DNA of 64,000 nucleotides from Actinomadura alba (lineage in GTDB: Bacteria; Actinomycetota; Actinomycetes; Streptosporangiales; Streptosporangiaceae). The notes beneath the pieces were generated by a model. That model made no database searches. It was not told where the DNA came from and saw only the letters and a program-made list of their open reading frames with translations. Shown here in pieces: positions 26,281-60,976 of the stretch. A program made the position numbers and the translations under genes. The first letter of the stretch is position 1, and the number at the start of each line of letters is the position of its first letter. Location: the NCBI RefSeq assembly GCF_039530285.1, contig NZ_BAAAOK010000005.1, positions 289,961-353,960 on the forward strand, given 5' to 3'.

Positions 26281-26420
26281 GGCCGTTTCCCTTCAAGTGA
26301 TGGACCGTCATCGGGGTGGCGATATCGATAGGTTCGCGATGGTGGTCTGCAGTCCCACCGGGCGACCAACATGCCTCCAACTGGTGCGTCCGTGGCTGGG
26401 CATCGCGTACGGATGGGAGG

Positions 26421-26744
26421 TCAGGGCTGCTCCGGAGGGATCTCCACCGTCAGACCATCGAGGGCCTTCGTGATGCGTATCTGGCATGCGAGACGACTGG
26501 TGCTGCGCCGCTCCGAGACCGCCATGTCGAGCAGATCCTCCTCCATATCATTGGGGGGTCCGACGATTGGTGCGAACTCCTCGCTCACCCAGACGTGACA
26601 GGTAGCGCAGGAGCAGTTCCCGCCGCACTCCGCGACGATCCCGGGGACGCCGTTCTTGACCGCGGCTGCCATGACCGTGTCACCGACCGCCGCGTCGACG
26701 GCGTATTCGCGACCGGCGCTGCCGATGTAGATCACTTTGGACAA
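26421..26744 (-). CDS. [2Fe-2S] ferredoxin (adrenodoxin/putidaredoxin type)
   Basis: 107 aa; CGGNCSCATCHV ... LACQ cysteine pattern. Confidence 0.85.
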   Translation of the reverse strand: MSKVIYIGSAGREYAVDAAVGDTVMAAAVKNGVPGIVAECGGNCSCATCHVWVSEEFAPIVGPPNDMEEDLLDMAVSERRSTSRLACQIRITKALDGLTVEIPPEQP

Positions 26745-26812
26745 GATCCGCCATGTCCTCTCACGGTCGTTCCCCCCAAGTGACGGACGCGCGCTCCGGT
26801 GAAGTGTCGTCC

Positions 26813-26837
26813 TATGGTATGTCCATTAGACCAGATA
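26813..26837. promoter_or_regulatory. Composite operator-like site TGGTATGTCCA / CCATTAGACCA about 75 nt upstream of ferredoxin gene
   Basis: Each half one mismatch from TGGTATGACCA (16296) and TGGTTAGACCA (12504). Confidence 0.4.
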
Positions 26838-26968
26838 CTTGGGTGGCCGCACAAGCGACTTCTGGTCAGCGGCCGCAAAGCCGGGGCCAATCGCAACCCT
26901 CGTGGCACCGAGGTGTGTTGAGGGCATGGCGCAGGATGCGGAGGCATGGCGGCGCTTCCTGTTCGCGC

Positions 26969-28252
26969 TCACGCGTCCGCTCGCTGAACCGCCGGCGCCG
27001 CGGTGGTGGAAGCGGCGAGGAGGGACTTCAGGGGAATGGCGGCGTCGCCGGCGCGGTCCGGGGCGATGGTCACTCCCTGGCCGAGCGCCTTACGTACGGC
27101 CATGTAGTCGGCCGGGCGGTTGACGGCGTCGATGGCCAGCAGCCGGTTCTGCCGGTAGTAAAGGACCGAGAAGCGCTCGTCATCCGGCTCACCGCGCACG
27201 ACGTAGTCGTCGTAGCCGGCGGCAAGGCCGGCGATCTGCAGCTTGAGGTCACCCTGGTAGGACCAGAACCACGGCACCGATTTCACGTCGTCAAGCCGGC
27301 CGAGGAGCGTCGCGGCCGCCACTCGGGCCTGGGCCACGGCGTTCTGGACCGACTCCAGCCGTACCCTCCCCTGCCCGGTCATCGGGTGCGGCTGCACGGT
27401 GCAGTCGCCGGCGGCGACCACCGAGGGGTCGCTGGTGCGGGCGTGGGCATCGACGACGATGCCCTGGTCGCACACGAGCCCCAGCTGCTCGGCCAGCTCG
27501 GTGCGCGGGAGGACGCCGACCCCGACCAGGACCAGATCGGTCGGCAGGTGCGTGCTGTCGGAGAGTTCGACGCCGGTCACCCGGCCCCTTTCACCGTCGA
27601 AGCCGGACACGCCCGAGGACAGCCGTACGTCGATGCCGCGGCGCAGGTGCGCCTGACGGTAGAACTCCGAGACGACGGGTCCCACGGCTCGGGCCATCAG
27701 CCGCTCCGCGGCCTCGACCACCGTGACGGACCTGCCAAGAGCGCGGGCCTCCGAAGCCACCTCCAGGCCGATGAATCCGCCGCCGACGACGACGACCTTT
27801 GAGGCGGTCGCGAGCCGCGCCCGCAGGTCCGCGGCATCGTTGTGGTCGCGCAGGTAGCAGATCCCGTCAAGGTCCGCCCCGGGCAGGGCAAGCCGCCTGG
27901 GGCCGGCTCCCACGGTCAACGCCAGCCGATCGAAGGGCAGTTCGCGCCCGTTCGCTGTCGCCGCGACTCCAGAGCCCGGGGGGCCCGATGGGGACAGGCC
28001 CAACTCGCTGACCCGCTCACCGCACACCAGGTCGATCCCGGAGTCGGCATAGAAGGCGGGCGCACGAAAGGCCAGCGAGTCGAGCTCCGCCTGGCCGGCG
28101 AGGAACTCCTTGGAAAGGGGCGGCCGCTGGTAGGGCGGATGCGTCTCCTCGCCGACCAAGATGATCGGTGAGGTGTCGCCGAGCTGCCGCAGTGACACGG
28201 CCAGTTGCAGGCCGGCCTGGCTGCCGCCAACGATCAGTGTCCCGTTACTCAT
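26969..28252 (-). CDS. FAD-dependent ferredoxin--NAD(P)+ reductase (putidaredoxin reductase-like)
   Basis: 427 aa; FAD motif LIVGGSQAG, NAD motif VVVVGGGFIGLE, pyridine nucleotide-disulfide oxidoreductase architecture. Confidence 0.85.
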   Translation of the reverse strand: MSNGTLIVGGSQAGLQLAVSLRQLGDTSPIILVGEETHPPYQRPPLSKEFLAGQAELDSLAFRAPAFYADSGIDLVCGERVSELGLSPSGPPGSGVAATANGRELPFDRLALTVGAGPRRLALPGADLDGICYLRDHNDAADLRARLATASKVVVVGGGFIGLEVASEARALGRSVTVVEAAERLMARAVGPVVSEFYRQAHLRRGIDVRLSSGVSGFDGERGRVTGVELSDSTHLPTDLVLVGVGVLPRTELAEQLGLVCDQGIVVDAHARTSDPSVVAAGDCTVQPHPMTGQGRVRLESVQNAVAQARVAAATLLGRLDDVKSVPWFWSYQGDLKLQIAGLAAGYDDYVVRGEPDDERFSVLYYRQNRLLAIDAVNRPADYMAVRKALGQGVTIAPDRAGDAAIPLKSLLAASTTAAPAVQRADA

Positions 28253-28375
28253 CCCGGCCCCCGGAAGTCGGGCCGGGACGACCGCCTAAGTGGAGGCCGC
28301 CTGGCCGCCGGAGCCCGCCATGGGCAACACCGCTGGTCCCTGCGTGACATGGAAACCTCTCATCTGAGGGCTTAA

Positions 28376-28398
28376 TGTAATACCATTAAACCATCGTT
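28376..28398. promoter_or_regulatory. Operator-like AATGTAATACCATTAAACCATCG (direct repeat ACCAT-TAA-ACCAT) in divergent reductase/GntR promoter region
   Basis: Shares exact 11-mer GTAATACCATT with 7240-7250. Confidence 0.3.
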
Positions 28399-28685
28399 CG
28401 GCGAAGTGCTCCCGTCCACCACCACCCCGGGCGCGGGGTCGCCGGATGGTGAGACCCGAACCTGGCCGAGGCCGTCGACGCGGCCGCCGAGGCAGGGCTG
28501 CCGCGCGTGCGTGGTGAAGGCCCAGCGGCTGGACCTGGTGGCGGAGGCGCTGCCGCACTTCCTCTCGCCGCCGTCGTACGCCCGCGTCCGCGACGAGCAG
28601 GGTCGTCCCCGGATACGCACCCTGCTGCTCGCGCGCGAGGGCGAGACCGACGCCCGACACCTTGGGCCACCCCTGAAGGCCTAGG

Positions 28686-28704
28686 ACTATTGGTATGACC
28701 ATAC
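28686..28704. promoter_or_regulatory. Operator-like site ACTATTGGTATGACCATAC about 65 nt upstream of GntR paralog 2
   Basis: 16-mer identical to 16294-16309. Confidence 0.45.
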
Positions 28705-28769
28705 TTCTGCTTAGGCCGTAGAGTGTCAACGAGAACTCCATCGGTCGCGCGATGCGGGAGGATGGGCCC

Positions 28770-29522
28770 ATGGGCGTCGGCGAGAAGAGTGAGGCGACGG
28801 GCACCTCCCCGTCCTCGGTTTCGGATCTGTTCAGTCCCGTCAGCCTGGGCCGCGTGTCACAGGTCATCGTCGACCAGGTCCGGTTGCTGATGCATCAGGG
28901 CCGGCTCAAGCCCGGAGATCGCCTTCCGAGCGAACGTGACCTGTGCGACCGGTTCGGGGTCAGTCGCGTCACGGTGCGTGAGGCGCTCCGGGTCCTGGAG
29001 GCCGGTGGGCTGGTCGAGATCCGTGTCGGGGCCCGCGGCGGGGCCTTCGTCACCACCCCCTCGCGCGCCCGGCTCGGTGAGGGTCTCGCGGATCTGCTCA
29101 AGCTCAGTCCCCTCACGGCGACCGAGGTCACCGAGGCACGCATGGTCTTCGAACTCGGCATCGTTCCGCTCGTGGTCGAACGCGCGACCGCCGACGACAT
29201 CGCCGAACTCAAGGAGATATGCGCACGGCAGCAGGAGGCGCTGAAGGATTCCTCCTACTCGATGACGCTGTCCGCCGAGTTCCACGTCCGGGTGGCCGCG
29301 TGCACGCACAACGCGGCGATCGAGATGCTGGTGCAGAGCTTCCACGGCCCGCTGCTCATGTCGCTTCAGGAGGCCCAGATCGTCGCCCCGCTGATGGGTC
29401 ACCGCGGCACCGCCGAGCACGGCGAATTCGTCGATGCGGTCGAGCGGGGCGATGTCGAGGCCGCCACCGCCATCATGCGCACGCACCTCCAGCGGACCGC
29501 GGATCGGGTCGCCCAGACGTAG
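28770..29522 (+). CDS. GntR-family transcriptional regulator (FCD), paralog 2
   Basis: ORF 28752..29522; ATG 28770 after GGGAGGATGGG; high identity to 12576..13349 (LFSPVSLGRVSQVIVDQVRLLMHQGRLKPGDRLPSERDLCDRFGVSRVTVREALRVLEAGGLV). Confidence 0.85.
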   Translation: MGVGEKSEATGTSPSSVSDLFSPVSLGRVSQVIVDQVRLLMHQGRLKPGDRLPSERDLCDRFGVSRVTVREALRVLEAGGLVEIRVGARGGAFVTTPSRARLGEGLADLLKLSPLTATEVTEARMVFELGIVPLVVERATADDIAELKEICARQQEALKDSSYSMTLSAEFHVRVAACTHNAAIEMLVQSFHGPLLMSLQEAQIVAPLMGHRGTAEHGEFVDAVERGDVEAATAIMRTHLQRTADRVAQT

Positions 29523-29791: not shown

Positions 29792-31225
29792 ATGCTGCCT
29801 TTAGGCCGGCGCTCCGTACGAGTGCGCTCCACGCTCGTCCTTGCCGCGATGGCGTTGATGTCCACCCTCGCGATCGGCGTCATACTCGACACGCTGATCC
29901 GTACCAACGCGCACGACACCGCTCTCGAGGAGACTCAGCGAGCCGCGATCCAGTGGATCGCCAGAGCACGGGCCGGGAGCGCGCCTCACCCGATCCCCAC
30001 ACCCGGTCCGGTCAAGCTGATCCAGCTCGTGGACAACCAGGGCCGGGTCATCGACGCCAGCGCAGCGGCCGACCACATGCCACCGTTGAGCACCATCCGG
30101 CCCCCGGACGACGACCGGATCGAGAACGTGACCGTGTGCCGGTCCGCGGAAGGTTGCGGCATCGTCACGGCGATCCGCTTCGCGTTGACCGACAAACCCG
30201 GGGACGCCGACCCGCATTACGTCTACGCCGGTGTGGAGGCTCCAAAGCTTCTCGCCTCACACGAACTCGAGCTGTTCATCGGCGCCGGTGTCATCGGCCT
30301 GACCGCGCTCGCGGCCGGGATCAACTGGCGGGTGTCCGGCCGCTGGCTCAACGCGGTGGAGTCGGTCCGGATGCAGGTGTCCACGCTGTCGATGAACAAC
30401 CTGGGCACCCGGTTCGGCCAACCGCGTCAACACGAGCTCGCGATGCTGACCGATACCGCCAACCAGGCCCTCGACCGGCTGGAGAAGGCCGTGCGGCAGG
30501 AACAGCAGTTCGCCTCCGAGGCCTCGCACGAGCTCAGATCACCGGTCGCCGGCCTGCATACCCAGCTGGAAGAAGCCCTGCTGTATCCCGACGACGTCGA
30601 TCCGCGCGAGACCATCCGCACAGCACTCTCAGCGACCGACCGGCTCACTCAGATCATCAACGACCTGCTGGTGCTCGCCCGGCTCCGGGCCGATCCGGCG
30701 CCGCAAGAGACCATCGACCTGGGTGAGCTCGTCATCCAGGAGGCCACGGCCAGGTCCCGGGACGTGCCGGTGACCGCCCATGCCACGTCCAAAGTGCCCG
30801 TCCGCGGCCGGCCGATACAGCTGATCCGAGTGATCGGCAACCTGCTGGACAACGCGCAGCGTCACGCGAACTCCCGGGTGGAGATCACGGCGTACCGGCA
30901 GGACGACCTGGCCGTGGTGGCCGTCACCGACGACGGCCCCGGCATCGCACCTGAGGACCGAGAACGCGTCTTCGAACGCTTCACCCGACTGCCCGACGGA
31001 CAGCGCCGCGATCCAGGCGGCAGCGGACTCGGCCTGGCGATCTCGGCCGACATCGCGCACGCCCACCAGGGATCCCTGACCGTGGAGGACTCACCGCTGG
31101 GTGCCCGATTCGTCCTGCGCCTTCCGCTTGTCGAGTCGGCCGACGGACCCGCCCACCCGGCGACCGACCCGGTCTGTTCCGGCGAGCGGTCGTCCAGCGG
31201 ACGGCCGGCTCAGCGGCGGCCCTGA
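29792..31225 (+). CDS. sensor histidine kinase (two-TM periplasmic-sensing, HAMP-HisKA-HATPase), no adjacent response regulator
   Basis: 477 aa; H-box SHELRSPVAGLHTQLE, N-box LLDNAQRHA, G1 DDGPGI, G2 GGSGLGLAI; preceded by a ~150-nt AT-rich stretch (see findings). Confidence 0.8.
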   Translation: MLPLGRRSVRVRSTLVLAAMALMSTLAIGVILDTLIRTNAHDTALEETQRAAIQWIARARAGSAPHPIPTPGPVKLIQLVDNQGRVIDASAAADHMPPLSTIRPPDDDRIENVTVCRSAEGCGIVTAIRFALTDKPGDADPHYVYAGVEAPKLLASHELELFIGAGVIGLTALAAGINWRVSGRWLNAVESVRMQVSTLSMNNLGTRFGQPRQHELAMLTDTANQALDRLEKAVRQEQQFASEASHELRSPVAGLHTQLEEALLYPDDVDPRETIRTALSATDRLTQIINDLLVLARLRADPAPQETIDLGELVIQEATARSRDVPVTAHATSKVPVRGRPIQLIRVIGNLLDNAQRHANSRVEITAYRQDDLAVVAVTDDGPGIAPEDRERVFERFTRLPDGQRRDPGGSGLGLAISADIAHAHQGSLTVEDSPLGARFVLRLPLVESADGPAHPATDPVCSGERSSSGRPAQRRP

Positions 31226-49750: not shown

Positions 49751-50428
49751 TCAGCCGGCGCTCTTGCGGCTACGCCCGTGAGCGTCGTGCGGCAGCGCCG
49801 CGTAGTGCCACTGGTGATCCCTGGCATGCTTGCACGCCGCCTCGAGTTCCCCACTCTCGATCGACGCGAGCAGTTCCGCGTGATCCTGAACGATCTCGTG
49901 GAGATCGACCCCCGCGGCGACCACTGTCACCGACGTCCGGGCCTCGATCTGCAGCGCCTCCCAGGACAGCTTGAGCAGTTCGTTCTGCGCGGCGTCGACG
50001 ATGTGGCGGTGGAACGCCACGCTGGCCCGCACCGCGGCCTCGGCGTCGCCATCGCGGGCCGCCGCTCGCATCGCCTCGATCTCCGCCCGCAGCGCCGCCA
50101 CCGGCACGGTTCCGCCCAGTATGGCGAGCCGCGTGGCCGTCTCTTCCAGGGCGGCGCGCACCACGTAGCTCTCCCGCAGAGTCTGCTGGACGAAGTGCCG
50201 TACGAACGTGCCTCGACGCGGCCGGGTCTCGACCATCCGCATGGCCTCGAGTTCGCGCAGCGCCTCGCGGACCGGGGCCTGACTGGTGCCGTAGGTCGCG
50301 GCGAGCCGGGTCTCGATGAGCCGTTCACCGGGCGCGATCTCGCCAGAGACGATCCGGCCGACGAGTGAGTCGCGGATCTGCTGAGACAGCGTCAGGCGGG
50401 ACAGCTTCCCCGGCTCGTCGGACCTCAT
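49751..50428 (-). CDS. GntR-family transcriptional regulator (FCD), third copy
   Basis: 225 aa; wHTH ...PGERLIETRLAATYGTSQAPVREALRELEAMRMV...; divergent from Mo-hydroxylase operon. Confidence 0.85.
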   Translation of the reverse strand: MRSDEPGKLSRLTLSQQIRDSLVGRIVSGEIAPGERLIETRLAATYGTSQAPVREALRELEAMRMVETRPRRGTFVRHFVQQTLRESYVVRAALEETATRLAILGGTVPVAALRAEIEAMRAAARDGDAEAAVRASVAFHRHIVDAAQNELLKLSWEALQIEARTSVTVVAAGVDLHEIVQDHAELLASIESGELEAACKHARDHQWHYAALPHDAHGRSRKSAG

Positions 50429-50590: not shown

Positions 50591-51391
50591 ATGATCACAG
50601 CGGTCCGCGTGCCCGACTCCGTAGCGGCCGCAGCGACCTACGCGGCCGCCGGCGGACGCGTCATGGGCGGCGGCACGATCGTCATGGCCCAGGTCAACAG
50701 CGGGTCGCTGGCGGAAACGGAACTCATCAGCCTGCGCAAGGCCGGCGTCTCGGGGATCCGGGTCGATGGGCGGGTGGTTCGCATCGGCGCGGCGACGACG
50801 TTCGCCGACATCGAGAGGTCGCCGGAACTCGCCTTCCTCCATGCCGCGATGCGCACCATCGCCTCACCGCCGATCCGCAACCTCGCGACGGTCGGTGGCA
50901 ACCTCTTCGTGCCGCAGCCCTACGGCGACTTCGCCGTGTGCCTGCTCGCGCTCGGCGCCACCGTCGAGATCGCCGGTCCGGGCGGGCCACGTCGGGCGCC
51001 GGTCGAGGACGTGCTCACCGCCGGCGTCGCCCAGGGCGAGTTCGTCACGGCCGTTGCGCTGTCCCTGCCCGCCGCGGGGACCTGGTTCCACCACAAGGCC
51101 ATGCGCCGCAAGCTCAACTCCGCCGCCATCGTCGCGGTGGCCGCGGTCGTCGACACCGCCGACGGGGTCGTGACCTCCGCCCGGATCGCCCTGGGCGGCG
51201 TCGCGCCCCGTCCAGTGCGCGCCGTGTCGGCCGAGCGGCTCCTGACCGGCCGCCCCCTCGAACACGACGTCCTCAACGAGGCGGGCCGGGCCGCCCGCGC
51301 GGACATCGCCCCGTTCGACGACGCCTACGCCAGCGCGTGGTACCGCAGACGCGTCCTTCCGGTCCACCTCCGCCGGGCCCTGCTCGGCTGA
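50591..51391 (+). CDS. molybdenum hydroxylase FAD-binding subunit (CoxM/XdhB-like)
   Basis: 266 aa; FAD_binding_5-type ...GGGTIVMAQVN..., ATVGGNLF. Confidence 0.85.
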   Translation: MITAVRVPDSVAAAATYAAAGGRVMGGGTIVMAQVNSGSLAETELISLRKAGVSGIRVDGRVVRIGAATTFADIERSPELAFLHAAMRTIASPPIRNLATVGGNLFVPQPYGDFAVCLLALGATVEIAGPGGPRRAPVEDVLTAGVAQGEFVTAVALSLPAAGTWFHHKAMRRKLNSAAIVAVAAVVDTADGVVTSARIALGGVAPRPVRAVSAERLLTGRPLEHDVLNEAGRAARADIAPFDDAYASAWYRRRVLPVHLRRALLG

Positions 51392-51421: not shown

Positions 51422-51967
51422 ATGGGTTCACAGATCGTCTCGCTGGTCGTCAACGACCAGCGACGCGAGTTCATCGCCAGGCCGGGCACCTCTCTGCTGT
51501 CCGCGCTGCGCGAATCGCTGGGGTTGATGGCGGCCAAACGCGGCTGCGGCCAGGGAACATGCGGCACCTGCACCGTGCTGGTCGACGACCGGCCCGTGAT
51601 GTCCTGCCTGGTCGCGGTCGAGACCATCGAGGGCGCCTCGGTCCGCACGCTCGAGGGCGTGGCGCGCGGCGGCGAGCTCGACGAGGTACAGAGCGCCTTC
51701 GTGGACGGCTTCGCCACCCAGTGCGGCTTCTGCACGGCTGGAATGATCATGTCGGCCGAGGCACTGCTCGAGCGCGACCCCGACCCGAGCCGGGAGGACG
51801 TCGTCGAGGCCATCTCCGGCAACGTCTGCCGCTGTACGGGCTACGCGTCGATCGTGGCCGCGATCCTGGACGCCGCGCGCCGGAGGAGGGACGCCGCGTC
51901 CAGCGGAGGCGACGCGCCCGCCGTGCCCGCCGGCTCCGAGGCCGCCGACGGGGCGGGGGTCCGATGA
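51422..51967 (+). CDS. molybdenum hydroxylase (2Fe-2S) small subunit (CoxS-like)
   Basis: 181 aa; CGQGTCGTCTV and CGFCTAGMIM...CRCTGY cysteine clusters. Confidence 0.9.
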   Translation: MGSQIVSLVVNDQRREFIARPGTSLLSALRESLGLMAAKRGCGQGTCGTCTVLVDDRPVMSCLVAVETIEGASVRTLEGVARGGELDEVQSAFVDGFATQCGFCTAGMIMSAEALLERDPDPSREDVVEAISGNVCRCTGYASIVAAILDAARRRRDAASSGGDAPAVPAGSEAADGAGVR

Positions 51968-53352
51968 ACCACCGGGTGAACCCCATCGACAAGAGCTACT
52001 TCGCGGGCGAACGCCGCGACGGCGACTTCACCGTCATCGGTTCGGTGGTGCAGCGTTCGGACGTGCTGGGACACGTCACCGGCCGGACCGAGTTCTTCGA
52101 GGACCTCGCGCTGCCGGACATGCTGCACCTGAAGATGTACCGCTCGGAGCGGCACCACGCCAGGATCAGCGGTCTCGACGTGACGGAGGCCCTGGCGGTG
52201 CCGGGCGTCGTACGCGTCCTGACCCACGCCGACATTCCCAACAACCTGTACACGCCGCTGAAGCTGATCGGGGTCGGTCCGGACGACGAGCCGATCCTGG
52301 CGGAGGACACCGTCCGCTATCTGGGCGACCCGATCTGCGCGGTGATCGCCGAGACCGAGGCCGCGGCCTACGAGGGCGTCTCCAGGGTCAGGGTCGACTA
52401 CACGGACCTGCCGGCCGTCTTCGACGTCGAGGAGGCGCTCGCCGAGGGCGCCCCGCTCGTCAACGAGTACCAGGGCCAGAACCACTTCATCTACGAGGGC
52501 CACCACTGCCGTCGAATCCGGTTCGGCGACGTCGACAAGGCGTTCGCGGAGGCCGACCACGTCTTCGAGTGGCGCTACCAGTCCGCCCCGATCGAGCAGG
52601 CGCCGGCCGAGACCACCGGGTGCGTCGTCGTCCCGCAGGCCGACGGCCGGCTCCGCGTCCACTCCGACACCCAGGCGTGCTTCTTCACCCTCGACAACAC
52701 GGCCCTGATCCTGGAGACCCCGTTCAACAAGCTGCGCGTCGTCGGCGGCACGGTCGGCGGCGGCTTCGGTGGCAAGGTGGACGTCGTCGTCGAGCCGGTC
52801 GCGTGCGTCGGGGCCATGCTGACGGGCCGGCCGGTCAAGTTCGTCTACACCCGCTACGAGGAGATGCAGGTCTCCTCACCGCGCGCCGCCGAACGGATCT
52901 ACATCAAGGACGCGGTGATGAACGACGGCCGCATCACCGGTCGCAAGGTCACCCTCTACGTCGACGCCGGCGCGTACGCCCGGCACAGCCCGTACGGCAC
53001 CACGAAGGCGGCGGCGCACCTGCCGGGGCCGTACAGCATTCCGAACGTCTGGGCCGACTGCCACTGCGTGTTCACCAACCGCACCCCGTCGAGCGCCATG
53101 CGCGGCTTCGGCGTCACCATCGGCGACTTCGCACTGGAGACGCAGATGGACCGGATCGCCCGGGAACTGGGGATGGACCCCCTGCGACTGCGGCTGATCA
53201 ACGCCTACCGGGACGGCGACATGAAGGCCCACCGCAAGATCGCCGAGGGAACGGCACTGGTCGAAGTGATCCAGAAGGCGGCGGAGATGGTCGGGCACGA
53301 ACTGCCGGACGCCTACCGGCGCATGTCGTCCACGCACCGGGAAGGGCGCTGA
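51964..53352 (+). CDS. molybdopterin-binding subunit, N-terminal polypeptide (nicotinate dehydrogenase NdhL-like)
   Basis: ATG 51964 overlapping upstream stop; 463 aa; contains GGGFGGK motif; terminates at TGA 53350-53352 in frame with next ORF. Confidence 0.75.
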   Translation: MNHRVNPIDKSYFAGERRDGDFTVIGSVVQRSDVLGHVTGRTEFFEDLALPDMLHLKMYRSERHHARISGLDVTEALAVPGVVRVLTHADIPNNLYTPLKLIGVGPDDEPILAEDTVRYLGDPICAVIAETEAAAYEGVSRVRVDYTDLPAVFDVEEALAEGAPLVNEYQGQNHFIYEGHHCRRIRFGDVDKAFAEADHVFEWRYQSAPIEQAPAETTGCVVVPQADGRLRVHSDTQACFFTLDNTALILETPFNKLRVVGGTVGGGFGGKVDVVVEPVACVGAMLTGRPVKFVYTRYEEMQVSSPRAAERIYIKDAVMNDGRITGRKVTLYVDAGAYARHSPYGTTKAAAHLPGPYSIPNVWADCHCVFTNRTPSSAMRGFGVTIGDFALETQMDRIARELGMDPLRLRLINAYRDGDMKAHRKIAEGTALVEVIQKAAEMVGHELPDAYRRMSSTHREGR

Positions 53353-53355
53353 GTC

Positions 53356-54420
53356 ATGGCGAAGCTGCGCGGCCGGGGATACGCCTCGGTGAACTACCCC
53401 ACCGGCATGAACCTGGGCGGAGATCCCTCCCAGGCCCTGATCCACTCCACGACGACCGGCACTTTCGTGGTGTCGCTGTCCTCCGTCGACCTCGGTCAGG
53501 GCATCAAGACGATCGCCGCCCAGTGCGCGGCGGAGACCCTCGGGCTGCCGTACGGGAACATCATCGTCGACACCGCGGACACCGACACCGGACCGCACTG
53601 CATGGGCACCTTCGCCAGCCGCGGCACCCACCGCGTCGGCAACGCGGTCATCATGGCGGCCGCCGAGGCGCGTGAGGTGATGCTGGAGGTCGCCGCCGAG
53701 GAGCTGGAGGTCGACGCCGCCGACCTCGAGACCGACGGCACCGGTTTCATCCAGGTGAGGGGGGCGGACGAGAAGCGGATCCACATCACCGACCTGGCGC
53801 TGGCCGCGCACTTCGAGCATGGGCGCACGATCTCGGGCCGCGGCATCTTCCTGAAGGAGAAGAACGAGCCCGTACCCGAGACCGGCGAGATGGACCCCGA
53901 CTCCTGCCAGGCGCACGCCTGCACGGTCGCCGTCGTCGAGGTCGACGACGAGACCGGCGTGGTCGAGGTGCTGGAACTGCACAACGCGTACGAGATGGGG
54001 CGCGCCCTCAACCCGGCCATGGCCGCCCAGCAGGTCGAGGGAGGAGCCTGGATGGGCATGTCCCATGCCCTGTTCGAGGCCACCGAGCCCTACTACCCGG
54101 CGCGCGACCACGGGCCGCGGGACTTCAGCGAGTACCTGATGCCGACCGCCGCCGACATTCCCGTGCAGCGCAGCGTCATCCTCGAACGCCCCGCCGCCAA
54201 CGGCCCCTTCGGTGCCAAGGGCATCGGCGAGATGACGGCCAACGCCCCGATCCCCGCCATCGGCAACGCGATCTTCGACGCGTGCGGCGTACGGCTGGAT
54301 TCCATGCCGTTCACCCCGGAGAAGGTGCTGCGCGGCCTGGACGAGCTGCGGGGCCTGGACGAGCTGGGCGACGCGTCCGAACGGGCCCACGCACCGGCCA
54401 CCGGACACGAGCGGCCGTGA
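53356..54420 (+). CDS. molybdopterin-binding subunit, C-terminal polypeptide (NdhM-like)
   Basis: 354 aa with own SD GGGAAGGG; contains active-site Glu region PFGAKGIGEMTANAPIPAIGNAIFDACG. Confidence 0.75.
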   Translation: MAKLRGRGYASVNYPTGMNLGGDPSQALIHSTTTGTFVVSLSSVDLGQGIKTIAAQCAAETLGLPYGNIIVDTADTDTGPHCMGTFASRGTHRVGNAVIMAAAEAREVMLEVAAEELEVDAADLETDGTGFIQVRGADEKRIHITDLALAAHFEHGRTISGRGIFLKEKNEPVPETGEMDPDSCQAHACTVAVVEVDDETGVVEVLELHNAYEMGRALNPAMAAQQVEGGAWMGMSHALFEATEPYYPARDHGPRDFSEYLMPTAADIPVQRSVILERPAANGPFGAKGIGEMTANAPIPAIGNAIFDACGVRLDSMPFTPEKVLRGLDELRGLDELGDASERAHAPATGHERP

Positions 54421-54422
54421 CG

Positions 54423-55313
54423 ATGACCGGCCACCCCGGTCCCGCGGTGGGCGGCCTCCTCGACGAGGAGCGGCTCGCCACCGCACTGGGGCGGGAGGGG
54501 TACTTCGCCGACGAGGGCCTGCTCACCGCGGTGCACCTCGCGCTGCGGCTGGGCCGGCCGCTCCTGCTGGAGGGCGAGCCGGGCGTCGGCAAGACCGAGA
54601 TCGCCGCGGTGCTCTCGCGCGTGCTCGATCGAGAGCTCATCCGCCTGCAGTGCTTCGAGGGGCTCGACTCCGGCCAGGCGCTGTACGAATGGGACTACCC
54701 CAAGCAGTTGCTGAAGGCTCGGGCGGCCGAGACCCACGGCCAGGACATCGCCGACCTCTACGCCGAGGAGTTCCTCCTGCAGCGTCCCCTGCTGCGCGCG
54801 GTCAGGTCCGAGCACGGGGCGGTCCTGCTGATCGACGAGATCGACCGGGCCGACAGCGAGTTCGAGGCGTTCCTCCTGGAGTTCCTCAGCGACTTCCAGA
54901 TCACCATCCCCGAGCTCGGCACCCTGCGGGCACGGTGGACGCCGGTCGTCGTCCTGACCTCCAACCGGACCAGGGAACTGCACGACGCGCTCAAACGACG
55001 CTGCCTCTACCACTGGATCGCCTTCCCCGACGCCGAGCGCGAACGCGCGATCCTGCGCGCGCACGTGCCGGGACTCGAGGAGGTGGCGGCCGACCGGCTG
55101 GTCCGCGCCGTACAGGAGATCCGCACCCTGCCGCTGGTCAAACGGCCGGGCATCGCCGAGTCGGTGGAATGGGCTCGCGGAGCGCTGGCCCTGGTCGACG
55201 GCGGCCGCGCTTGGCCGCAGGCGCTGCGGCGCGCACTGGGACTGCTGATCAAGGACGAGGAGGACACCCGCCTGCTCCACGGCCGCGCGAACGAGATGTT
55301 CGGCCATGACTGA
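54423..55313 (+). CDS. MoxR/CoxD-like AAA+ ATPase (molybdoenzyme maturation)
   Basis: Start M at 54423; Walker A EGEPGVGKTEIA, Walker B LLIDEIDRA. Confidence 0.8.
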   Translation: MTGHPGPAVGGLLDEERLATALGREGYFADEGLLTAVHLALRLGRPLLLEGEPGVGKTEIAAVLSRVLDRELIRLQCFEGLDSGQALYEWDYPKQLLKARAAETHGQDIADLYAEEFLLQRPLLRAVRSEHGAVLLIDEIDRADSEFEAFLLEFLSDFQITIPELGTLRARWTPVVVLTSNRTRELHDALKRRCLYHWIAFPDAERERAILRAHVPGLEEVAADRLVRAVQEIRTLPLVKRPGIAESVEWARGALALVDGGRAWPQALRRALGLLIKDEEDTRLLHGRANEMFGHD

Positions 55314-56502
55314 GCGGCCGGACCGGCGGTCGCTGCGGCTCGCCGCGGACCATCTCTGGGGGTTCATGTCCGCCCTGCGCCGGGCGGGCGTGCGCCCAGC
55401 ACCTCCGAAACAGGCCGACTTCCTGCGCGCCATCGCGGAATCAGCGCCCCGTGACGTCACCTCGCTCTACTGGTATGCGCGGGTCACTCTGCTGGACGGC
55501 GTCGCCGACCTCGAGACGTTCGACCGCGTCTTCGACACCTGGTTCCGGCGCGACGACATCGAGACCGCCGTCACTCCCCCGCCCGACGAGCGAGGCAACG
55601 CGCCGGCACCGCACGGGGGCGACGACGGCGGGCCGCCGCCACCGGACGCGGTCCAGGGCAACGGCGTCGAGGCGAGCGCGCTGGCCACCACGGGGCGGCG
55701 GGCCTTCGGCCGGTCGGATGCCCGGCAGCGCGATCTCATGCGGTCGCTCCAGGCGACGTGGCCGGCCTGCCTTCCCACGATCTCCTCGCGGAGGAGGCAC
55801 CCGGCCCGATCCGGGCGCCGGCTGGACATGCGGCGCGTCTGGCGCCAGGCCCGGCGCGACGGCGGGGAGATCGTCCGGCTCCGGTGGACCACCCGGCCAC
55901 CCCGTACGCGCCGGCTCCTGCTTCTCGTGGACGTGTCCGGATCGCTGCGAAAGCACACCTCCGACCTGTTGCGACTCGCGCACACCGCGATCCAGGCCGC
56001 ACCCGCCCGCACCGAGGTCTTCACCTTCGGCACGCGCCTCACCCGGGTCACCGCCGCGCTGTCGTGCCCGCAGGTGGACCGGGCACTGGACGCCCTCTCC
56101 CACGAGGTCCTCGACGCCCACGGGGGCACCGCGATCGGCGCGGCGCTGGAGCGGTTCCTGGACACCCCCCGCTTCCTCGCACTCGCCCGCGGCGCGCTGG
56201 TGATCGTGATCTCGGACGGGTTGGAGCGAGGCGACTGCGCGGCGATGGTCCGCTCGACCGAGCGCCTGTCCCGGCTCGGGCACCGGCTCGTCTGGTGGTC
56301 GCCGCTGGCCTGCTCACCCACCTACCGTCCGATCACGCGCGGCATGGCCGGCCAGCTGGGCAGCCTCGACCGCCTCGGCGGCGTGCGCGACCTCGAGACC
56401 GGCCTGGCCGAGATCCGGCGCCTCCCCACGGTGCTGGCCGGACCCCGCCGCGCGGCAGCCCGCCACTGGCCCGAACCCACGCCGACTGGACCGCCCACAT
56501 GA
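55306..56502 (+). CDS. CoxE-like von Willebrand factor A domain protein
   Basis: 398 aa; ATGA overlap; vWA MIDAS-like LLLVDVSGSL; follows CoxD as in cox/xdh clusters. Confidence 0.7.
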   Translation: MTERPDRRSLRLAADHLWGFMSALRRAGVRPAPPKQADFLRAIAESAPRDVTSLYWYARVTLLDGVADLETFDRVFDTWFRRDDIETAVTPPPDERGNAPAPHGGDDGGPPPPDAVQGNGVEASALATTGRRAFGRSDARQRDLMRSLQATWPACLPTISSRRRHPARSGRRLDMRRVWRQARRDGGEIVRLRWTTRPPRTRRLLLLVDVSGSLRKHTSDLLRLAHTAIQAAPARTEVFTFGTRLTRVTAALSCPQVDRALDALSHEVLDAHGGTAIGAALERFLDTPRFLALARGALVIVISDGLERGDCAAMVRSTERLSRLGHRLVWWSPLACSPTYRPITRGMAGQLGSLDRLGGVRDLETGLAEIRRLPTVLAGPRRAAARHWPEPTPTGPPT

Positions 56503-57458
56503 CGAACACCGAACGCGCCCGGAACCCCGAGATCCCCGAGATCCCCGACGACGCTGAGATCGAGCTGGTCGACGCCCACCACCACATCTGGCGGAGGGCG
56601 GACCTGCCGTGGCTGGACGGTGCGATGGTGCCGCGCATCTTCGGCCCCTACGAGCCGATCCGCCGGGACTACCTCGCCGACGAGTACGTCGGCGAGGCCA
56701 CCGCCTGCGGCATCTCCTCGTCGGTCTACGTCCAGACGAACTGGCCGCTCGAACGGTCCATCGACGAGGTCCGCTGGCTGCGTGACGTTCACGCGCACAC
56801 CGGATGGCCCATGGCCGTGATCGGCTCGGCGGACCTGTTCGACCCCGGCGCCGCCGAGGTGATGCGCCGGCAGGCCGAGCTCACCCCGCTCATGCGCGGG
56901 ACCCGCTTGCAGCTGCACTGGCACGACCGCCCCGAGTTCCGGTTCGCGTCGGCCCCGGACCGGATGAACGATCCGGTGTTCCGCAGCGGCATCGCCGCGC
57001 TGGCCGAGCTCGGCTGGCTCTTCGAGCTGCAGGTCTTCGCGCCGCAGATGGCCGACGCGGCCGAGTTCGTGGCCGCCTTCCCCGGCACCACGTTCGTGCT
57101 GGTGCACGCCGGGATGCTGGACGGCACGGAGCCGGCCCGCATCGCCGAGTGGACGCGGGGCATGCGGCTCCTGGCCGAGCTGCCCAACGTCGTGGTGAAG
57201 CTCACCGGCCAGGGCACCTTCGTCCACCGGGTCGATCAGACGCTGATCGACCTGGTCACCGCGACCTGTCTGGAGCTGTTCGGATCACGGCGTTGCATGT
57301 GGGGCAGCAACTTCCCGGTCGAGAAGATCTGGACCGATCTGCCCACCCTCGTCACGGCCTGGCGGCGGGCCCTCGGCCGGTACGCCCCCGGCGTCCGGCG
57401 CGATGTCTTCGCCGAGACCGCGCGGAGGATCTACACGCTCACCGATCACACAGCGTGA
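56499..57458 (+). CDS. amidohydrolase-2 family protein
   Basis: ATGA overlap; ELVDAHHHIW metal-binding N-terminus, VLVHAGM; 319 aa. Confidence 0.7.
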   Translation: MTNTERARNPEIPEIPDDAEIELVDAHHHIWRRADLPWLDGAMVPRIFGPYEPIRRDYLADEYVGEATACGISSSVYVQTNWPLERSIDEVRWLRDVHAHTGWPMAVIGSADLFDPGAAEVMRRQAELTPLMRGTRLQLHWHDRPEFRFASAPDRMNDPVFRSGIAALAELGWLFELQVFAPQMADAAEFVAAFPGTTFVLVHAGMLDGTEPARIAEWTRGMRLLAELPNVVVKLTGQGTFVHRVDQTLIDLVTATCLELFGSRRCMWGSNFPVEKIWTDLPTLVTAWRRALGRYAPGVRRDVFAETARRIYTLTDHTA

Positions 57459-57498: not shown

Positions 57499-57993
57499 AT
57501 GGCGGAGATCACTGTTCGGGTGAACGGCACGGAGCACTCGCTGATCGTCGACACCCGGCTTTCGCTGCTGGACCTGCTGCGTGAGCGGCTCGGCCTGACC
57601 GGCTCGAAGAAGGGCTGCGATCATGGCCAGTGCGGCGCGTGCACCGTGTTGATCGACGGTCGCCGGTCCAACGCCTGCCTGGCGCTGGCGGTCACGTGCG
57701 ACGGCCTCGACGTCACGACCGTCGAGGGCCTGGGCGACGGCGACGGCGGGCTGCACCCGTTGCAGGCCGCGTTCATCGAGCACGACGCGTTCCAGTGCGG
57801 TTACTGCACGCCCGGGCAGCTGTGCTCGGCCGCCGGGATGCTCACCGAGCCCGGGCCGAGCGCCGTCACCGAGGACCTCATGGAAGACCCGCCACTGACG
57901 CCCGCCGAGATCCGCGAGCGCATGAGCGGCAACCTGTGCCGGTGCGGCGCCTACGTCAACATCGTCACCGCGATCGAGGGAGTGCGGCGATGA
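57499..57993 (+). CDS. molybdenum hydroxylase (2Fe-2S) small subunit, second set
   Basis: 164 aa; CDHGQCGACTV, CGYCTPGQ...CRCGAY. Confidence 0.9.
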   Translation: MAEITVRVNGTEHSLIVDTRLSLLDLLRERLGLTGSKKGCDHGQCGACTVLIDGRRSNACLALAVTCDGLDVTTVEGLGDGDGGLHPLQAAFIEHDAFQCGYCTPGQLCSAAGMLTEPGPSAVTEDLMEDPPLTPAEIRERMSGNLCRCGAYVNIVTAIEGVRR

Positions 57994-58961
57994 GGCCCTT
58001 CGAGTACGCGCGGGCGCTCGACGGGCCTGACGCCGTGGCCCGCTTCCGGCCCGGCACGATGTACCTCGGCGGAGGCACCAACCTCGTCGACCTCATGCGG
58101 CTGGGCGTCGCGGAACCCGATCATCTCGTGGACGTCAGCCGCCTTCCGTTCGACCGCGTCGAGGCGAGCGACGGCGGCCTGCGGATCGGCGCGGCGGTGC
58201 GCAACAGCGACCTGGCCGCGCACCCGCTGGTGCGCGAGCGGTACCCGATGCTGGCACGGGCGCTGCTGGCCGGGGCATCCGGCCAGGTGCGCAACATGGC
58301 GACGGTCGCGGGCAACCTGCTGCAGCGGACCCGCTGCCCTTACTTCCAGGACGTCACCAAGGCCTGCAACAAGCGCGTTCCGGGCTCCGGCTGCCCGGCC
58401 ATCCCGGGCGACCATCGCAACCACGCCATCATCGGCCACTCCGAGGCGTGCGTGGCCGTCCATCCCTCCGACATGGCGGTGGCGCTGGCCGCTCTGGAGG
58501 CCCGGGTGCACGTCACCGGCCCAGACGGCGACCGGGTCGTGCCGATCCCGGGCCTGCACCGGCTGCCCGGTACCGAACCCCACCGTGACACCGTGCTGGA
58601 GCCCGGCGAACTGATCACCACCGTGGAGCTGCCTTCCCCGCCCGCCGGCTCCTCCCAGTACCGGAAGGTGCGCGAGCGCGCGTCGTTCGCCTTCGCGCTC
58701 GTCTCCGTCGCCGCCGTGCTCGACGTCGGCGGCGACGGAACCGTGCGCGGCTGCCGGCTGGCACTCGGCGGTGTGGCGCACGTGCCATGGCGCGCCGAGC
58801 GGGCCGAGCGGGCGCTGCTCGGCGCGCCGGCGACCGAAGAGGAGTTCGTCCGGGCGGCGGACGCCGAACTCGACCAGGCCCGGCCGCTGCCCCGGAACGG
58901 CTACAAGGTGCCGCTGTCCCGCAACCTGATCGTCCGCACGCTACGGGAGCTGACGCCTTGA
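57990..58961 (+). CDS. molybdenum hydroxylase FAD-binding subunit, second set
   Basis: ATGA overlap; 323 aa; YLGGGTNLVDLMRLG, ATVAGNLLQRTRCPYF. Confidence 0.85.
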   Translation: MRPFEYARALDGPDAVARFRPGTMYLGGGTNLVDLMRLGVAEPDHLVDVSRLPFDRVEASDGGLRIGAAVRNSDLAAHPLVRERYPMLARALLAGASGQVRNMATVAGNLLQRTRCPYFQDVTKACNKRVPGSGCPAIPGDHRNHAIIGHSEACVAVHPSDMAVALAALEARVHVTGPDGDRVVPIPGLHRLPGTEPHRDTVLEPGELITTVELPSPPAGSSQYRKVRERASFAFALVSVAAVLDVGGDGTVRGCRLALGGVAHVPWRAERAERALLGAPATEEEFVRAADAELDQARPLPRNGYKVPLSRNLIVRTLRELTP

Positions 58962-60976
58962 ACCGCGTCGAGGCCTACGACAAGGTCACCGGGCGTGCGA
59001 AGTACGCCTACGAGTACGGCGTGGGCGAGGTCGCGTACGCCCATCTCGTCCAGTCGACGATCGCACGCGGGCGGATCCGGTCCATCGACCCGGGTCAGGC
59101 GCTGGCCATGCCCGGCGTGATCGCCGTCCTGTCCAGCGACGACCCGCCCGAGCTCGGCTCGCTCGACGACGCCGAACTCGCCCTGCTCCAGAGCCGCGCC
59201 ATCGCCTACCGTGGCCAGATCGTGGCCGTGGTCGTCGCCGAGACGCCGGAGATCGCGCGCGCCGCCGAGCGGGCCGTGCGGGTCGAGTACGACGCCGAGC
59301 CGCACGACGTGCTCCTCCGGCCGGACCACCCAGGCCTCTACCCGCCCGAGAAGGTCAACCCGGGGCTGCCGACCGACACCGAGCGGGGGGATGTGGCGGG
59401 TGGGCTCGCCGACGCGGCGGTGACCGTGGACGCGACGTACACGACCCCGACCCAGCACAACAATCCGATGGAGCCGCACGCCGCGCTCGCCGTCTGGGCG
59501 GACGGCGGCCTGACGCTCTACGACTCGTCGCAGGGCGTGTCCGCCGAGCGCGCCACGGCCGCGAAGGTCCTGGGCCTTCCGCCGGAGCGGGTGCGGGTGA
59601 TCTCCCGGCACGTCGGCGGCGGATTCGGGTCGAAGGGCACCATACGGCCGCATGCGGTCGCGGCGGCGCTCGCGGCGCGGGCCACCGGTCGCCCGGTGAA
59701 GATCGCAGTCACGCGGCAGCAGATGTTCGAGGTCACCGGGTATCGCACCCCGACCATCCAGCGGCTCCGGCTCGGCGCCGACGCCGACGGGCGGCTGACC
59801 GCGATCGCCCACGACGTCGTCGAGCAGACCTCGACGATCGTCGAGTTCGCCGAGCAGACCGCCACCCCGACTCGCGTCATGTACGCGACTCCGGCACTGC
59901 GCACCACGCACCGGCTGCTCCGGCTCGACCTGCCGACGCCGTCGTGGATGCGGGCGCCCGGTGAATGCCCGGGCATGTACGCGCTCGAGTCCGCGATGGA
60001 CGAACTCGCGGTCGCCGCCGGCATCGACCCGATCGAGCTGCGCGTCATGAACGAGCCCCTGACCGAGCCCGAGAGCGGCCTGCCGTTCAGCTCCCGCAAT
60101 CTCGTCGCCTGCCTGCGTGAGGGCGCCCGCCGCTTCGGATGGGAACGCCGCGACCCCGAGCCCGGGATCCGCCTCGACGGGCGGTGGCTCGTCGGCACGG
60201 GCGTCGCCTCCTCCACGTACCCGGCCAGGCGCATGGCCTCACGGGCCACGGCGACCGCCGAGGACGGCGGATTCATCGTCCGCATCGCCGCCGCCGACAT
60301 CGGCACCGGAGCCCGTACGGCGCTGACCCGGATCGCGGCGCAGACCCTGGGCACCTCCACCGAACGGGTGCGCGTCGAGATCGGGGACAGCGCCCTGCCG
60401 CAGGCCTCGCTCGCGGGGGGCTCCATGGGCACCGCCTCGTGGGGCTCGGCGGTCGTGAAGGCGTGCGAGGCGATGCTGAAGAACGGCGCAGTGGGCAGCG
60501 CCGACACCACCGAGGACGTCGAGGCCGACTCCGGCTTCGCCCGGCACGCGTTCGGCGCGCAGTTCGCCGAGGTCCGCGTCGACATCGACACCGGTGAGCT
60601 GCGCGTACCGAGGCTGCTCGGCGTGTTCGCCGCCGGCCGGATCATCGACGACTCGCTCGCCCGATCGCAGTTCATCGGCGGCATGACCATGGGCATGGGA
60701 ATGGCCCTGATGGAGGAGACCGTCGTCGACGAGGAGTTCGGCGACTTCCTCAACCACGACCTCGCGCAGTATCACGTCGCCGCCTGCGCCGACGTACTGG
60801 ACATCGATGCCGTGTGGATCGAGGAGGAGGACCCGTACCTCAACCCGATGGGCAGCAAGGGCATCGGCGAGATCGGCATCGTCGGTACCGCCGCCGCCAT
60901 CGCCAACGCCGTCTACCACGCGACCGGGCGGCGTATCCGCGACCTGCCCATCACCCCCGACAAGCTGGTGAGCTGA
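58958..60976 (+). CDS. xanthine dehydrogenase-family molybdopterin-binding large subunit, second set (intact)
   Basis: TTG start overlapping upstream stop (TTGA), no in-frame ATG/GTG downstream before conserved N-terminus; HVGGGFGSKG; active-site region MGSKGIGEIGIVGTAAAIANAVYHATG. Confidence 0.8.
   Translation: MNRVEAYDKVTGRAKYAYEYGVGEVAYAHLVQSTIARGRIRSIDPGQALAMPGVIAVLSSDDPPELGSLDDAELALLQSRAIAYRGQIVAVVVAETPEIARAAERAVRVEYDAEPHDVLLRPDHPGLYPPEKVNPGLPTDTERGDVAGGLADAAVTVDATYTTPTQHNNPMEPHAALAVWADGGLTLYDSSQGVSAERATAAKVLGLPPERVRVISRHVGGGFGSKGTIRPHAVAAALAARATGRPVKIAVTRQQMFEVTGYRTPTIQRLRLGADADGRLTAIAHDVVEQTSTIVEFAEQTATPTRVMYATPALRTTHRLLRLDLPTPSWMRAPGECPGMYALESAMDELAVAAGIDPIELRVMNEPLTEPESGLPFSSRNLVACLREGARRFGWERRDPEPGIRLDGRWLVGTGVASSTYPARRMASRATATAEDGGFIVRIAAADIGTGARTALTRIAAQTLGTSTERVRVEIGDSALPQASLAGGSMGTASWGSAVVKACEAMLKNGAVGSADTTEDVEADSGFARHAFGAQFAEVRVDIDTGELRVPRLLGVFAAGRIIDDSLARSQFIGGMTMGMGMALMEETVVDEEFGDFLNHDLAQYHVAACADVLDIDAVWIEEEDPYLNPMGSKGIGEIGIVGTAAAIANAVYHATGRRIRDLPITPDKLVS

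Follow-up and report, generated by a model that had tools for sequence, protein, structure and literature searches.

The window, that is, the whole stretch of 64,000 nucleotides of Actinomadura alba DNA that we analysed, carries a compact run of seven genes in the order FAD-FeS-L-M-AAA-VWA-Amidohydro_2 and a divergently transcribed regulator gene (Table 1). The FeS stop codon and the L start codon overlap as ATGA (51964-51967), the AAA and VWA genes overlap by 8 nt, and the VWA stop and the Amidohydro_2 ATG again form an ATGA; overlaps or very short spacers thus make up all of the FeS/L, L/M, M/AAA, AAA/VWA and VWA/amidohydrolase boundaries. For the AAA ATPase, an alternative GTG start at 54417 is possible. 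This protein matched the NCBIfam MadB-family AAA ATPase model (5.5e-82) below its curated cut-off, and the match to the MadC family likewise stayed under its own cut-off; a literature search on the names MadB and MadC returned nothing relevant. The nearest solved structure of the Amidohydro_2 protein was L-fucono-1,5-lactonase (4DLF, E 1.3e-15).

Table 1. Genes of the module and the L/M junction, with positions in the window
Feature	Position	Strand	Description
GntR-family regulator with FCD ligand domain, divergent, likely regulator of the operon	49751..50428	-	Pfam GntR 1.5e-17, FCD 1.1e-18
FAD-binding subunit	50591..51391	+	266 aa; Pfam FAD_binding_5 2.3e-27, CO_deh_flav_C 1.1e-24
Two-[2Fe-2S] subunit (FeS)	51422..51967	+	181 aa; Pfam Fer2 3.1e-10, Fer2_2 4.9e-29
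L, N-terminal part of the Mo-cofactor subunit	51964..53352	+	462 aa, 51.1 kDa; hammerhead and MoCoBD_1; GGGFGGK, AMRGFG
L/M junction	53339..53358	+	Shine-Dalgarno GGGAAGGG, L stop TGA, spacer GTC, M start ATG
M, C-terminal part of the Mo-cofactor subunit	53356..54420	+	354 aa, 37.5 kDa; MoCoBD_2; GAKGIGE catalytic Glu loop
MoxR/CoxD-like AAA+ ATPase, putative Mo-site maturation factor	54423..55313	+	Pfam AAA_5 2.1e-13
CoxE-like VWA-domain protein, partner of the AAA ATPase	55306..56502	+	Pfam VWA_CoxE 2e-41
Amidohydro_2 (COG3618-like) hydrolase, last conserved gene of the module	56499..57458	+	Pfam Amidohydro_2 2.1e-36

Between them, L and M contain the hammerhead, MoCoBD_1 and MoCoBD_2 domains of the xanthine dehydrogenase/Mo-hydroxylase family, and the domain content divides cleanly at the gene boundary, with MoCoBD_1 in L (Pfam Ald_Xan_dh_C 8.6e-27, MoCoBD_1 1.8e-74) and MoCoBD_2 in M (5.6e-59). 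The family motifs are present as well: L has GGGFGGK and, as SSAMRGFGV, the A-x-R-G-x-G loop, while M has the catalytic Glu in the C-terminal G-x-G-E loop, as GAKGIGEM, and all of these aligned with the matching motifs of NdhL and NdhM of Eubacterium barkeri nicotinate dehydrogenase. The two-[2Fe-2S] and FAD partner subunits of a Mo hydroxylase are encoded directly upstream of L. When concatenated, L and M aligned collinearly and over the whole length with the fused large subunits of 4-hydroxybenzoyl-CoA reductase alpha (1RM6), CoxL (8UEM), KdhL (7DQX) and QorL (1T3Q), with E values from 1.5e-83 to 1.3e-70. The columns at the junction contained 50-90% gaps and showed at most 30% conservation, and the conserved RGxG strand follows directly after them. 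On this alignment the L/M break sits in a variable, indel-rich linker between domains, a position that the original prediction had considered.

The junction itself reads cgg gaa ggg cgc TGA gtc ATG gcg, with the L stop TGA at 53350-53352, GTC at 53353-53355 and the M start ATG at 53356-53358. The original prediction had placed both ORFs in one frame with only TGA-GTC before the ATG, had assigned GGGFGGK to the first ORF and the active-site Glu loop to the second, and had given the second ORF a Shine-Dalgarno sequence of its own. The coordinates confirm the frame (the starts at 51964 and 53356 are both 1 mod 3), both motifs are seen in the translations, and the Shine-Dalgarno GGGAAGGG was located at 53339-53346, ending 9 nt upstream of the M ATG. 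The worry that had been attached to the exact conservation of the frame turned out to concern an incidental property. We surveyed 79 orthologous loci with L/M junctions in Actinomycetota and Chloroflexota, and in 25 of them (32%) L and M were in frame (binomial p = 0.81 against 1/3), so that the shared frame is no more frequent than expected by chance. That TGA and ATG stand in one frame here is a coincidence of the 3-nt spacer.

The same survey, a comparison for which the original prediction had called, showed the split in 79 of 79 orthologous loci of the two phyla and a fused L-M ortholog in none. The L stop codon was TGA in 53 loci, TAG in 24 and TAA in 2, the frame offset of M relative to L was 0 in 25, +1 in 7 and +2 in 47, ATGA or TGATG overlaps occurred at many junctions, and a motif resembling a Shine-Dalgarno sequence preceded the M start in 78 loci. 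With a median identity of 83% across the orthologous loci, M was better conserved than any other gene of the module, a sign that it is under strong purifying selection. The best 120 database relatives of each protein, which come from many genera, were all stand-alone: those of L had 441-471 aa and no MoCoBD_2, and those of M had 332-348 aa and MoCoBD_2 only. L/M-split gene pairs at 34-42% identity to M were also found in other gene orders and contexts, and of the nearest sequence clusters at 50% identity, about one in three was a stand-alone M protein. Nine of the 11 representatives of intermediate length (395-681 aa) were 5'-truncated fused proteins that also matched the C-terminal part of L. 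Another, P0241, was considered as an alternative fusion and rejected, being a stand-alone M whose N-terminal extension is an out-of-frame overcall, and P0328 carries ~300 N-terminal residues without similarity to L. As judged from these gene comparisons, the two-gene split is old and has been inherited across Actinomycetota and Chloroflexota. A catalytic subunit made from two genes is common to many bacteria and had been described before in nicotinate dehydrogenase.

A recent, strain-specific nonsense mutation that broke a single gene for a ~88 kDa protein, leaving a pseudogene or a crippled enzyme, had been kept as a formal alternative in the original prediction. It would agree with the common frame of L and M and with the presence of only a stop and one codon between them, but neither the 79 loci nor the best 120 relatives of each half include a fused ortholog, the orthologous junctions fall in all three frames and use differing stop codons, and M has its own conserved start and Shine-Dalgarno, exceeds all other genes of the module in conservation and has a GC3 of 0.94. 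We rejected the pseudogene reading on the ortholog survey and give a recent mutation practically no credence. Recoding of the in-frame UGA, as selenocysteine or by programmed read-through, would yield a fused L-M protein, either alongside the two parts or in their place. In its favour, the UGA stands in frame here and TGA-NNN-ATG recurs in the closest relatives (L001 and L007); selenium is also required by some relatives in the family, but there it is a labile Mo ligand, not selenocysteine (PMC11448449). Yet in-frame relatives in Streptosporangium and Sphaerisporangium have TAG, two thirds of the orthologs are out of frame or overlapping, and the junction aligns to the non-conserved linker instead of a catalytic position. 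No SECIS-like fold was found after the TGA (the 76 nt spanning the UGA, 53345-53420, gave z = 0.15 against shuffles), and the tRNA scan of the window gave only one tRNA-Ser call and no tRNA-Sec. Neither of the two marks of a selenoprotein, an in-frame UGA conserved among the 79 orthologs and a SECIS hairpin in the 53345-53420 fold, was thus found. The orthologs with TAG and TAA, and the fact that most are out of frame, argue for excluding UGA recoding, which had been thought unlikely from the outset and which we regard as very improbable. Low-level read-through may occur at the in-frame UGA.

The resemblance to nicotinate dehydrogenase raises the further reading that the enzyme is a functional ortholog of the E. 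barkeri protein and converts nicotinate to 6-hydroxynicotinate. The two enzymes agree in their four-subunit architecture, in the gene order F-S-L-M and in the break point, and the best solved-structure matches of L and M were NdhL (E 1.2e-70; 35.5% identity, L 21-442 against NdhL 4-414) and NdhM (E 2.1e-46; 36.1% identity, M 3-326 against NdhM 2-323), with M residue 3 opposite NdhM residue 2. However, these identities are at about the level of fused relatives with other or unknown substrates. The neighbours of L and M are AAA, VWA, Amidohydro_2 and GntR genes; nicotinate-catabolic genes (6-hydroxynicotinate reductase, enamidase) are absent from the flanking genes, where neither an Amidohydro_1 enamidase nor a Fer4 reductase was present. 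It was at the distant loci L082 and L083 that a Fer4 gene and an Amidohydro_1 gene resembling an enamidase were seen. In a neighbour-joining tree of 81 M-type or M-equivalent regions, calculated without bootstrap, the window M lay outside the clade of NdhM and in another all-split clade. The tree was star-like with short internal branches, and it speaks neither for nor against descent of this split and the E. barkeri split from one event, a possibility that we considered. The likeness to Ndh does not go beyond architecture: neither the ~36% identity nor the gene context supports nicotinate as the substrate, and we consider functional orthology unlikely.

Our preferred reading, with a probability of about 0.92, is that two separate genes, L and M, together encode the Mo-cofactor subunit of a hydroxylase of the xanthine dehydrogenase family. 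As this is an old two-gene arrangement common to many bacteria, the in-frame stop would be neither a mutation nor a recoding signal. L carries the hammerhead and the first cofactor-binding domains (51 kDa), and M the second, with the catalytic glutamate (37 kDa). Ribosomes would stop at the L stop codon and, guided by the Shine-Dalgarno embedded in the last codons of L, begin again at the M ATG after 3 nt. By analogy with the E. barkeri NdhFSLM structure (~36% identity), L and M would join the FAD and [2Fe-2S] subunits in a four-subunit enzyme, and the Mo active site would be formed between L and M. For annotation, this means that adjacent in-frame ORFs of ~460 and ~335 aa of the Mo-hydroxylase family should be kept as two genes; merging such a pair, or labelling it a pseudogene or a selenoprotein, would be a mistake.

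Family membership and gene linkage also suggest what the module might do. The module with its GntR gene was kept in 68-80 of 80 orthologous loci, depending on the gene: the FAD gene in 76, the AAA gene in 77, the VWA gene in 73, the Amidohydro_2 gene in 71, and the regulator, at its divergent position, in 68. A second Mo-hydroxylase set (57499-60976) was considered as a part of the module and lies outside it in the 80-locus comparison. No accessory genes of the XdhC, CoxF or CoxG type were found among the window ORFs scanned (from ~20,600 on). The enzyme would hydroxylate a heteroaromatic compound, which probably has a carboxylate group. Maturation of the Mo site would fall to the MoxR-type ATPase and the VWA protein, and opening of the lactam or lactone so formed to the Amidohydro_2 enzyme. 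We tentatively propose, at somewhat less than even odds, that the seven-gene operon and the divergent GntR/FCD regulator form a catabolic unit for a heteroaromatic carboxylate in Actinomycetota and Chloroflexota. In such a unit, a CoxD/CoxE-like pair would take the place of XdhC in maturing a non-copper Mo site of the XDH type, ring opening after hydroxylation would be hydrolytic, and the substrate would be unlike those of all characterised Mo hydroxylases. The tightly conserved module is a reasonable target for enzyme discovery.

CoxD and CoxE are the maturation pair of aerobic CO dehydrogenase, a role known from O. carboxidovorans, and the active-site loop of CO dehydrogenase binds Cu and contains a Cys. 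The likeness here is that the structural genes are immediately followed by a gene for a MoxR-type AAA+ ATPase and then by a VWA_CoxE gene. Unlike in CO dehydrogenase, the partner enzyme does not have the Cu-binding loop; its active-site loop (AMRGFG) is of the XDH type. The three-subunit Mo hydroxylases (1RM6, 8UEM, 7DQX and QorL 1T3Q) have the same domain order and the same FAD and FeS partners, but their large subunit is a single polypeptide of ~770-800 aa, whereas the subunit described here is cut in the linker before the RGxG strand.

The closest architectural parallel is the four-subunit nicotinate dehydrogenase NdhF/NdhS/NdhL/NdhM of E. barkeri (PDB 3HRD), as presented in those parts of PMC10331938 and PMC8305194 that cite Alhapel 2006 and Wagener 2009. 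Its subunits have 23, 33, 37 and 50 kDa (PMC10331938), and an AFRGFG loop is given for both Ndh and XDH (PMC8305194). The gene order FAD, FeS, L, M is the same in both systems and the sizes of the two Mo-subunit parts (~50 and 37 kDa) are similar, and the A. alba locus has the NdhFSLM-type arrangement, with separate genes for L (~420-470 aa) and M (~330-350 aa) and the break between MoCoBD_1 and MoCoBD_2. Both enzymes share GGGFGGK followed by a hydrophobic residue (not Glu), the A(F/M)RGFG loop and the GAKG(V/I)GE loop. The original prediction of a real L/M split like that of NdhFSLM, which had been drawn from gene order and part sizes, therefore holds, with the break point and the 79 split loci as further evidence. 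A literature search found no characterised actinobacterial four-subunit enzyme of this type. In contrast to E. barkeri Ndh, the genes described here are accompanied by those for a MoxR-type AAA protein, a VWA protein and an Amidohydro_2 enzyme, and the host is an aerobic high-GC actinomycete whereas E. barkeri is an anaerobic Firmicute. A labile selenium ligand on Mo belongs to the E. barkeri type of enzyme, and no sign of a dependence on selenium was noticed here in the analyses described. According to the survey, a split of the NdhL/NdhM type occurs widely among aerobic soil bacteria and is not peculiar to one anaerobe.

The window sequence bears out the description of a catalytic subunit encoded in two pieces: the ORFs starting at 51964 (L) and 53356 (M) share one reading frame, and the junction reads CGG GAA GGG CGC TGA GTC ATG GCG, with GGGAAGGG 9 nt upstream of the M ATG. 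L (462 aa, computed 51.1 kDa; Pfam domains Ald_Xan_dh_C and MoCoBD_1) carries GGGFGGK and the AMRGFG loop, and M (354 aa, 37.5 kDa; MoCoBD_2) carries the GAKGIGE loop, which holds the catalytic glutamate. The FeS gene stop overlaps the L start as ATGA.

Features of the window discussed in the text
Feature	Position	Strand	Source
LigXa-like Rieske oxygenase	24994-26280
Ferredoxin-reductase-type flavoprotein	26969-28252
Second GntR/FCD regulator	28752-29522
Histidine-kinase ORF	29792-31225
tRNA-Ser(GGA), 93 nt	30955-31047	-	ARAGORN
SPFH/Band 7-kinase protein, 514 aa	31229-32773	-
FAD subunit gene, upstream of L	50591-51391	+	Pfam
FeS subunit gene, two [2Fe-2S] clusters, upstream of L	51422-51967	+	Pfam
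L stop TGA	53350-53352	+	Window sequence
M start ATG	53356-53358	+	Window sequence
18-bp tandem repeat, 2.4 copies	54327-54370
FeS gene, second set	57499-57993		Pfam/NCBIfam scan
FAD gene, second set	about 57990-58961
Undivided Mo subunit ORF, second set	58787-60976

The exact conservation of frame had left a recent nonsense mutation as a formal alternative to a genuine split. Among the best 120 database relatives of each half, however, those of L are all 441-471 aa long and lack MoCoBD_2, and those of M are all 332-348 aa long with MoCoBD_2 as the only domain; they include Actinomadura, Nonomuraea, Actinoplanes, Virgisporangium, Actinophytocola, Saccharomonospora, Prauserella, Nocardioides, Mycobacterium and Solirubrobacter, as well as Thermomicrobiales. 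Of 80 orthologous genomic loci that we retrieved, 79 contain the junction; in none of them are L and M fused. As L stop codon, 53 loci have TGA, 24 TAG and 2 TAA, and Streptosporangium and Sphaerisporangium use TAG even though L and M are in frame there. Relative to the L stop, the M start is at offset 0 (in frame) in 25 loci, +1 in 7 and +2 in 47, with ATGA or TGATG overlaps at many junctions; the in-frame share (32%) is that expected by chance (binomial p = 0.81). A Shine-Dalgarno-like purine run precedes the M start in 78/79 loci, 76 of which use ATG. Because no ortholog is fused, the stops vary and the frame is at chance level, both a pseudogene and UGA-specific recoding are excluded. In support of excluding recoding, which the original prediction had considered unlikely as Sec insertion, a 76-nt stretch across the UGA (53345-53420) showed no more folding than its shuffled versions (z = 0.15) and a tRNA scan of the window found no tRNA-Sec. 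The proposed split is thereby supported, and the shared frame, which had prompted the nonsense-mutation alternative, is a by-product of the 3-nt spacer and carries no significance.

Concatenated L+M gave one uninterrupted alignment to four fused large subunits (4-hydroxybenzoyl-CoA reductase alpha, residues 19-763; CoxL, 34-790; KdhL, 26-784; QorL, 14-784), with no missing or duplicated segment. When 43 fused relatives were aligned, gaps made up 50-90% of the 20 columns ahead of the junction and conservation there did not exceed 30%; a conserved RGxG strand starts 5-6 residues past the junction. The cut thus falls in a variable inter-domain linker.

We then compared M with a database reduced to a single representative for each 50%-identity cluster. 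Every full-length relative above ~45% identity was a stand-alone M; at 34-43%, stand-alone M proteins (325-370 aa) were interleaved with fused ones (750-800 aa). The representatives comprised 24 split versus 44 fused and 9 truncated-fused proteins, with one intermediate (P0328) left unclassified. Another representative, P0241 (483 aa), has an Arg/Ala-rich stretch of 143 residues at its start without similarity to L, which looks like a gene call that was extended too far, over the 3' end of the upstream L gene in a different frame, and not like a fusion. We also located the contigs that encode four distant stand-alone M proteins. On three of them an L-type gene (419-429 aa) lies immediately before M; in the fourth (L085), M sits at a contig end beside a truncated upstream ORF without Pfam annotation, and an FeS gene comes after M. 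The complete loci are ordered F-S-L-M or L-M-F-S (F, FAD; S, FeS), and the L/M spacing varies between an overlap of 4 nt and a gap of 19 nt. The F-S-L-M locus L084 (7037-9686) continues with LarA-like (Lar_N) and YqeC plus nucleotidyltransferase genes, of a kind that typically accompanies Mo hydroxylases dependent on selenium. Metagenome contigs L082 and L083 (4737-11098) encode a distant split pair (L 419 aa, M 335 aa) in the order L-M-FAD-FeS, followed by genes for an Amidohydro_1 protein and a Fer4 protein of 499 aa and preceded by those for an aldehyde dehydrogenase and a sigma-54 activator, a layout that resembles an E. barkeri-type nicotinate fermentation cluster. In a neighbour-joining tree their M groups with NdhM, and the window M falls in a different, all-split clade; with its short internal branches, the tree is compatible with one origin of the split or with several.

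Across the 80 loci, the module consists of a divergent GntR/FCD regulator (68/80), FAD (76/80) and FeS (78/80) subunits, L (78/80), M (80/80), a MoxR-type AAA ATPase (77/80), a VWA_CoxE protein (73/80) and an Amidohydro_2 enzyme (71/80); outside it no gene is conserved across the loci. In the window its genes are joined throughout by overlaps or very short spacers, as translational coupling would predict. A ~90-aa ORF, judged by eye to be YCII-like and absent from the window, follows the Amidohydro_2 gene in 14 loci (within L043-L078, ~9800-10300 in locus coordinates), mostly from Actinoplanes and Asanoa and some from Nonomuraea. Between M and the AAA gene, 15 loci (the closest relatives L001 and L007 among them) have a ~100-aa ORF, judged EthD-like by eye, that is absent from the window boundary (54420-54423); tblastn gave no match to it in any part of the window. 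The window M has a C-terminal extension of ~20 aa relative to its orthologs (354 versus 332-348 aa), and the tandem repeat at its 3' end duplicates LRGLDE. A local deletion or rearrangement at this boundary seems likely.

The AMRGFG loop belongs to the XDH/Ndh type and differs from that of CODH. GGGFGGK is followed by Val in the window L and by Leu in Ndh; xanthine dehydrogenases have Glu there, so the Val argues against xanthine as substrate. The amidohydrolase comes closest to COG3618 lactonases (4DLF, E 1.3e-15) and scores 95 bits against the NCBIfam fuconolactonase model (cut-off 400). From gene linkage we infer a scheme in which a carboxylate-sensing FCD regulator would control the operon, the Mo enzyme would hydroxylate a heteroaromatic substrate adjacent to the heteroatom, and the amidohydrolase may open the resulting lactam or lactone. 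CoxD and CoxE are a Mo-site maturation pair, and by analogy the AAA and VWA proteins may mature the Mo site. We give slightly less than even odds (about 0.45) to a reading in which the module has a novel substrate specificity and its non-copper Mo site is matured in the CoxD/CoxE manner.

Outside the conserved module, the window holds a second Mo-hydroxylase set (57499-60976; order FeS, FAD, undivided Mo subunit, the latter probably starting near 58958). It is PaoABC-like yet below NCBIfam cut-offs, and its FeS subunit aligns only from PaoA model position 51, without a counterpart of the PaoA N-terminal region. The Rieske oxygenase, flavoprotein and second GntR/FCD regulator suggest another aromatic-catabolic unit (24994-29522). 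The tRNA-Ser(GGA) call lies opposite the HATPase_c region (nt about 30809-31130) of the histidine-kinase ORF and is either a false positive or a real overlap. In the 514-aa protein an SPFH/Band 7 domain at the N-terminus is joined to a Ser/Thr protein kinase domain at the C-terminus.

The E. barkeri nicotinate dehydrogenase has four subunits of 23, 33, 37 and 50 kDa, encoded by ndhF, ndhS, ndhL and ndhM (PMC10331938). Since sequence identity is low (L versus NdhL, 35.5%; M versus NdhM, 36.1%) and no nicotinate-pathway genes are linked to the window's L/M operon, we rejected filing the enzyme as a nicotinate dehydrogenase; by function it is an uncharacterised member of the NdhFSLM-type kind. 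The resemblance noted in the original prediction nevertheless stands: NdhL (E 1.2e-70) and NdhM (E 2.1e-46) are the best solved-structure matches of L and M, and by architecture the enzyme would be an NdhFSLM-type four-subunit Mo hydroxylase, with the same break point as NdhL/NdhM (M residue 3 aligned to NdhM residue 2).
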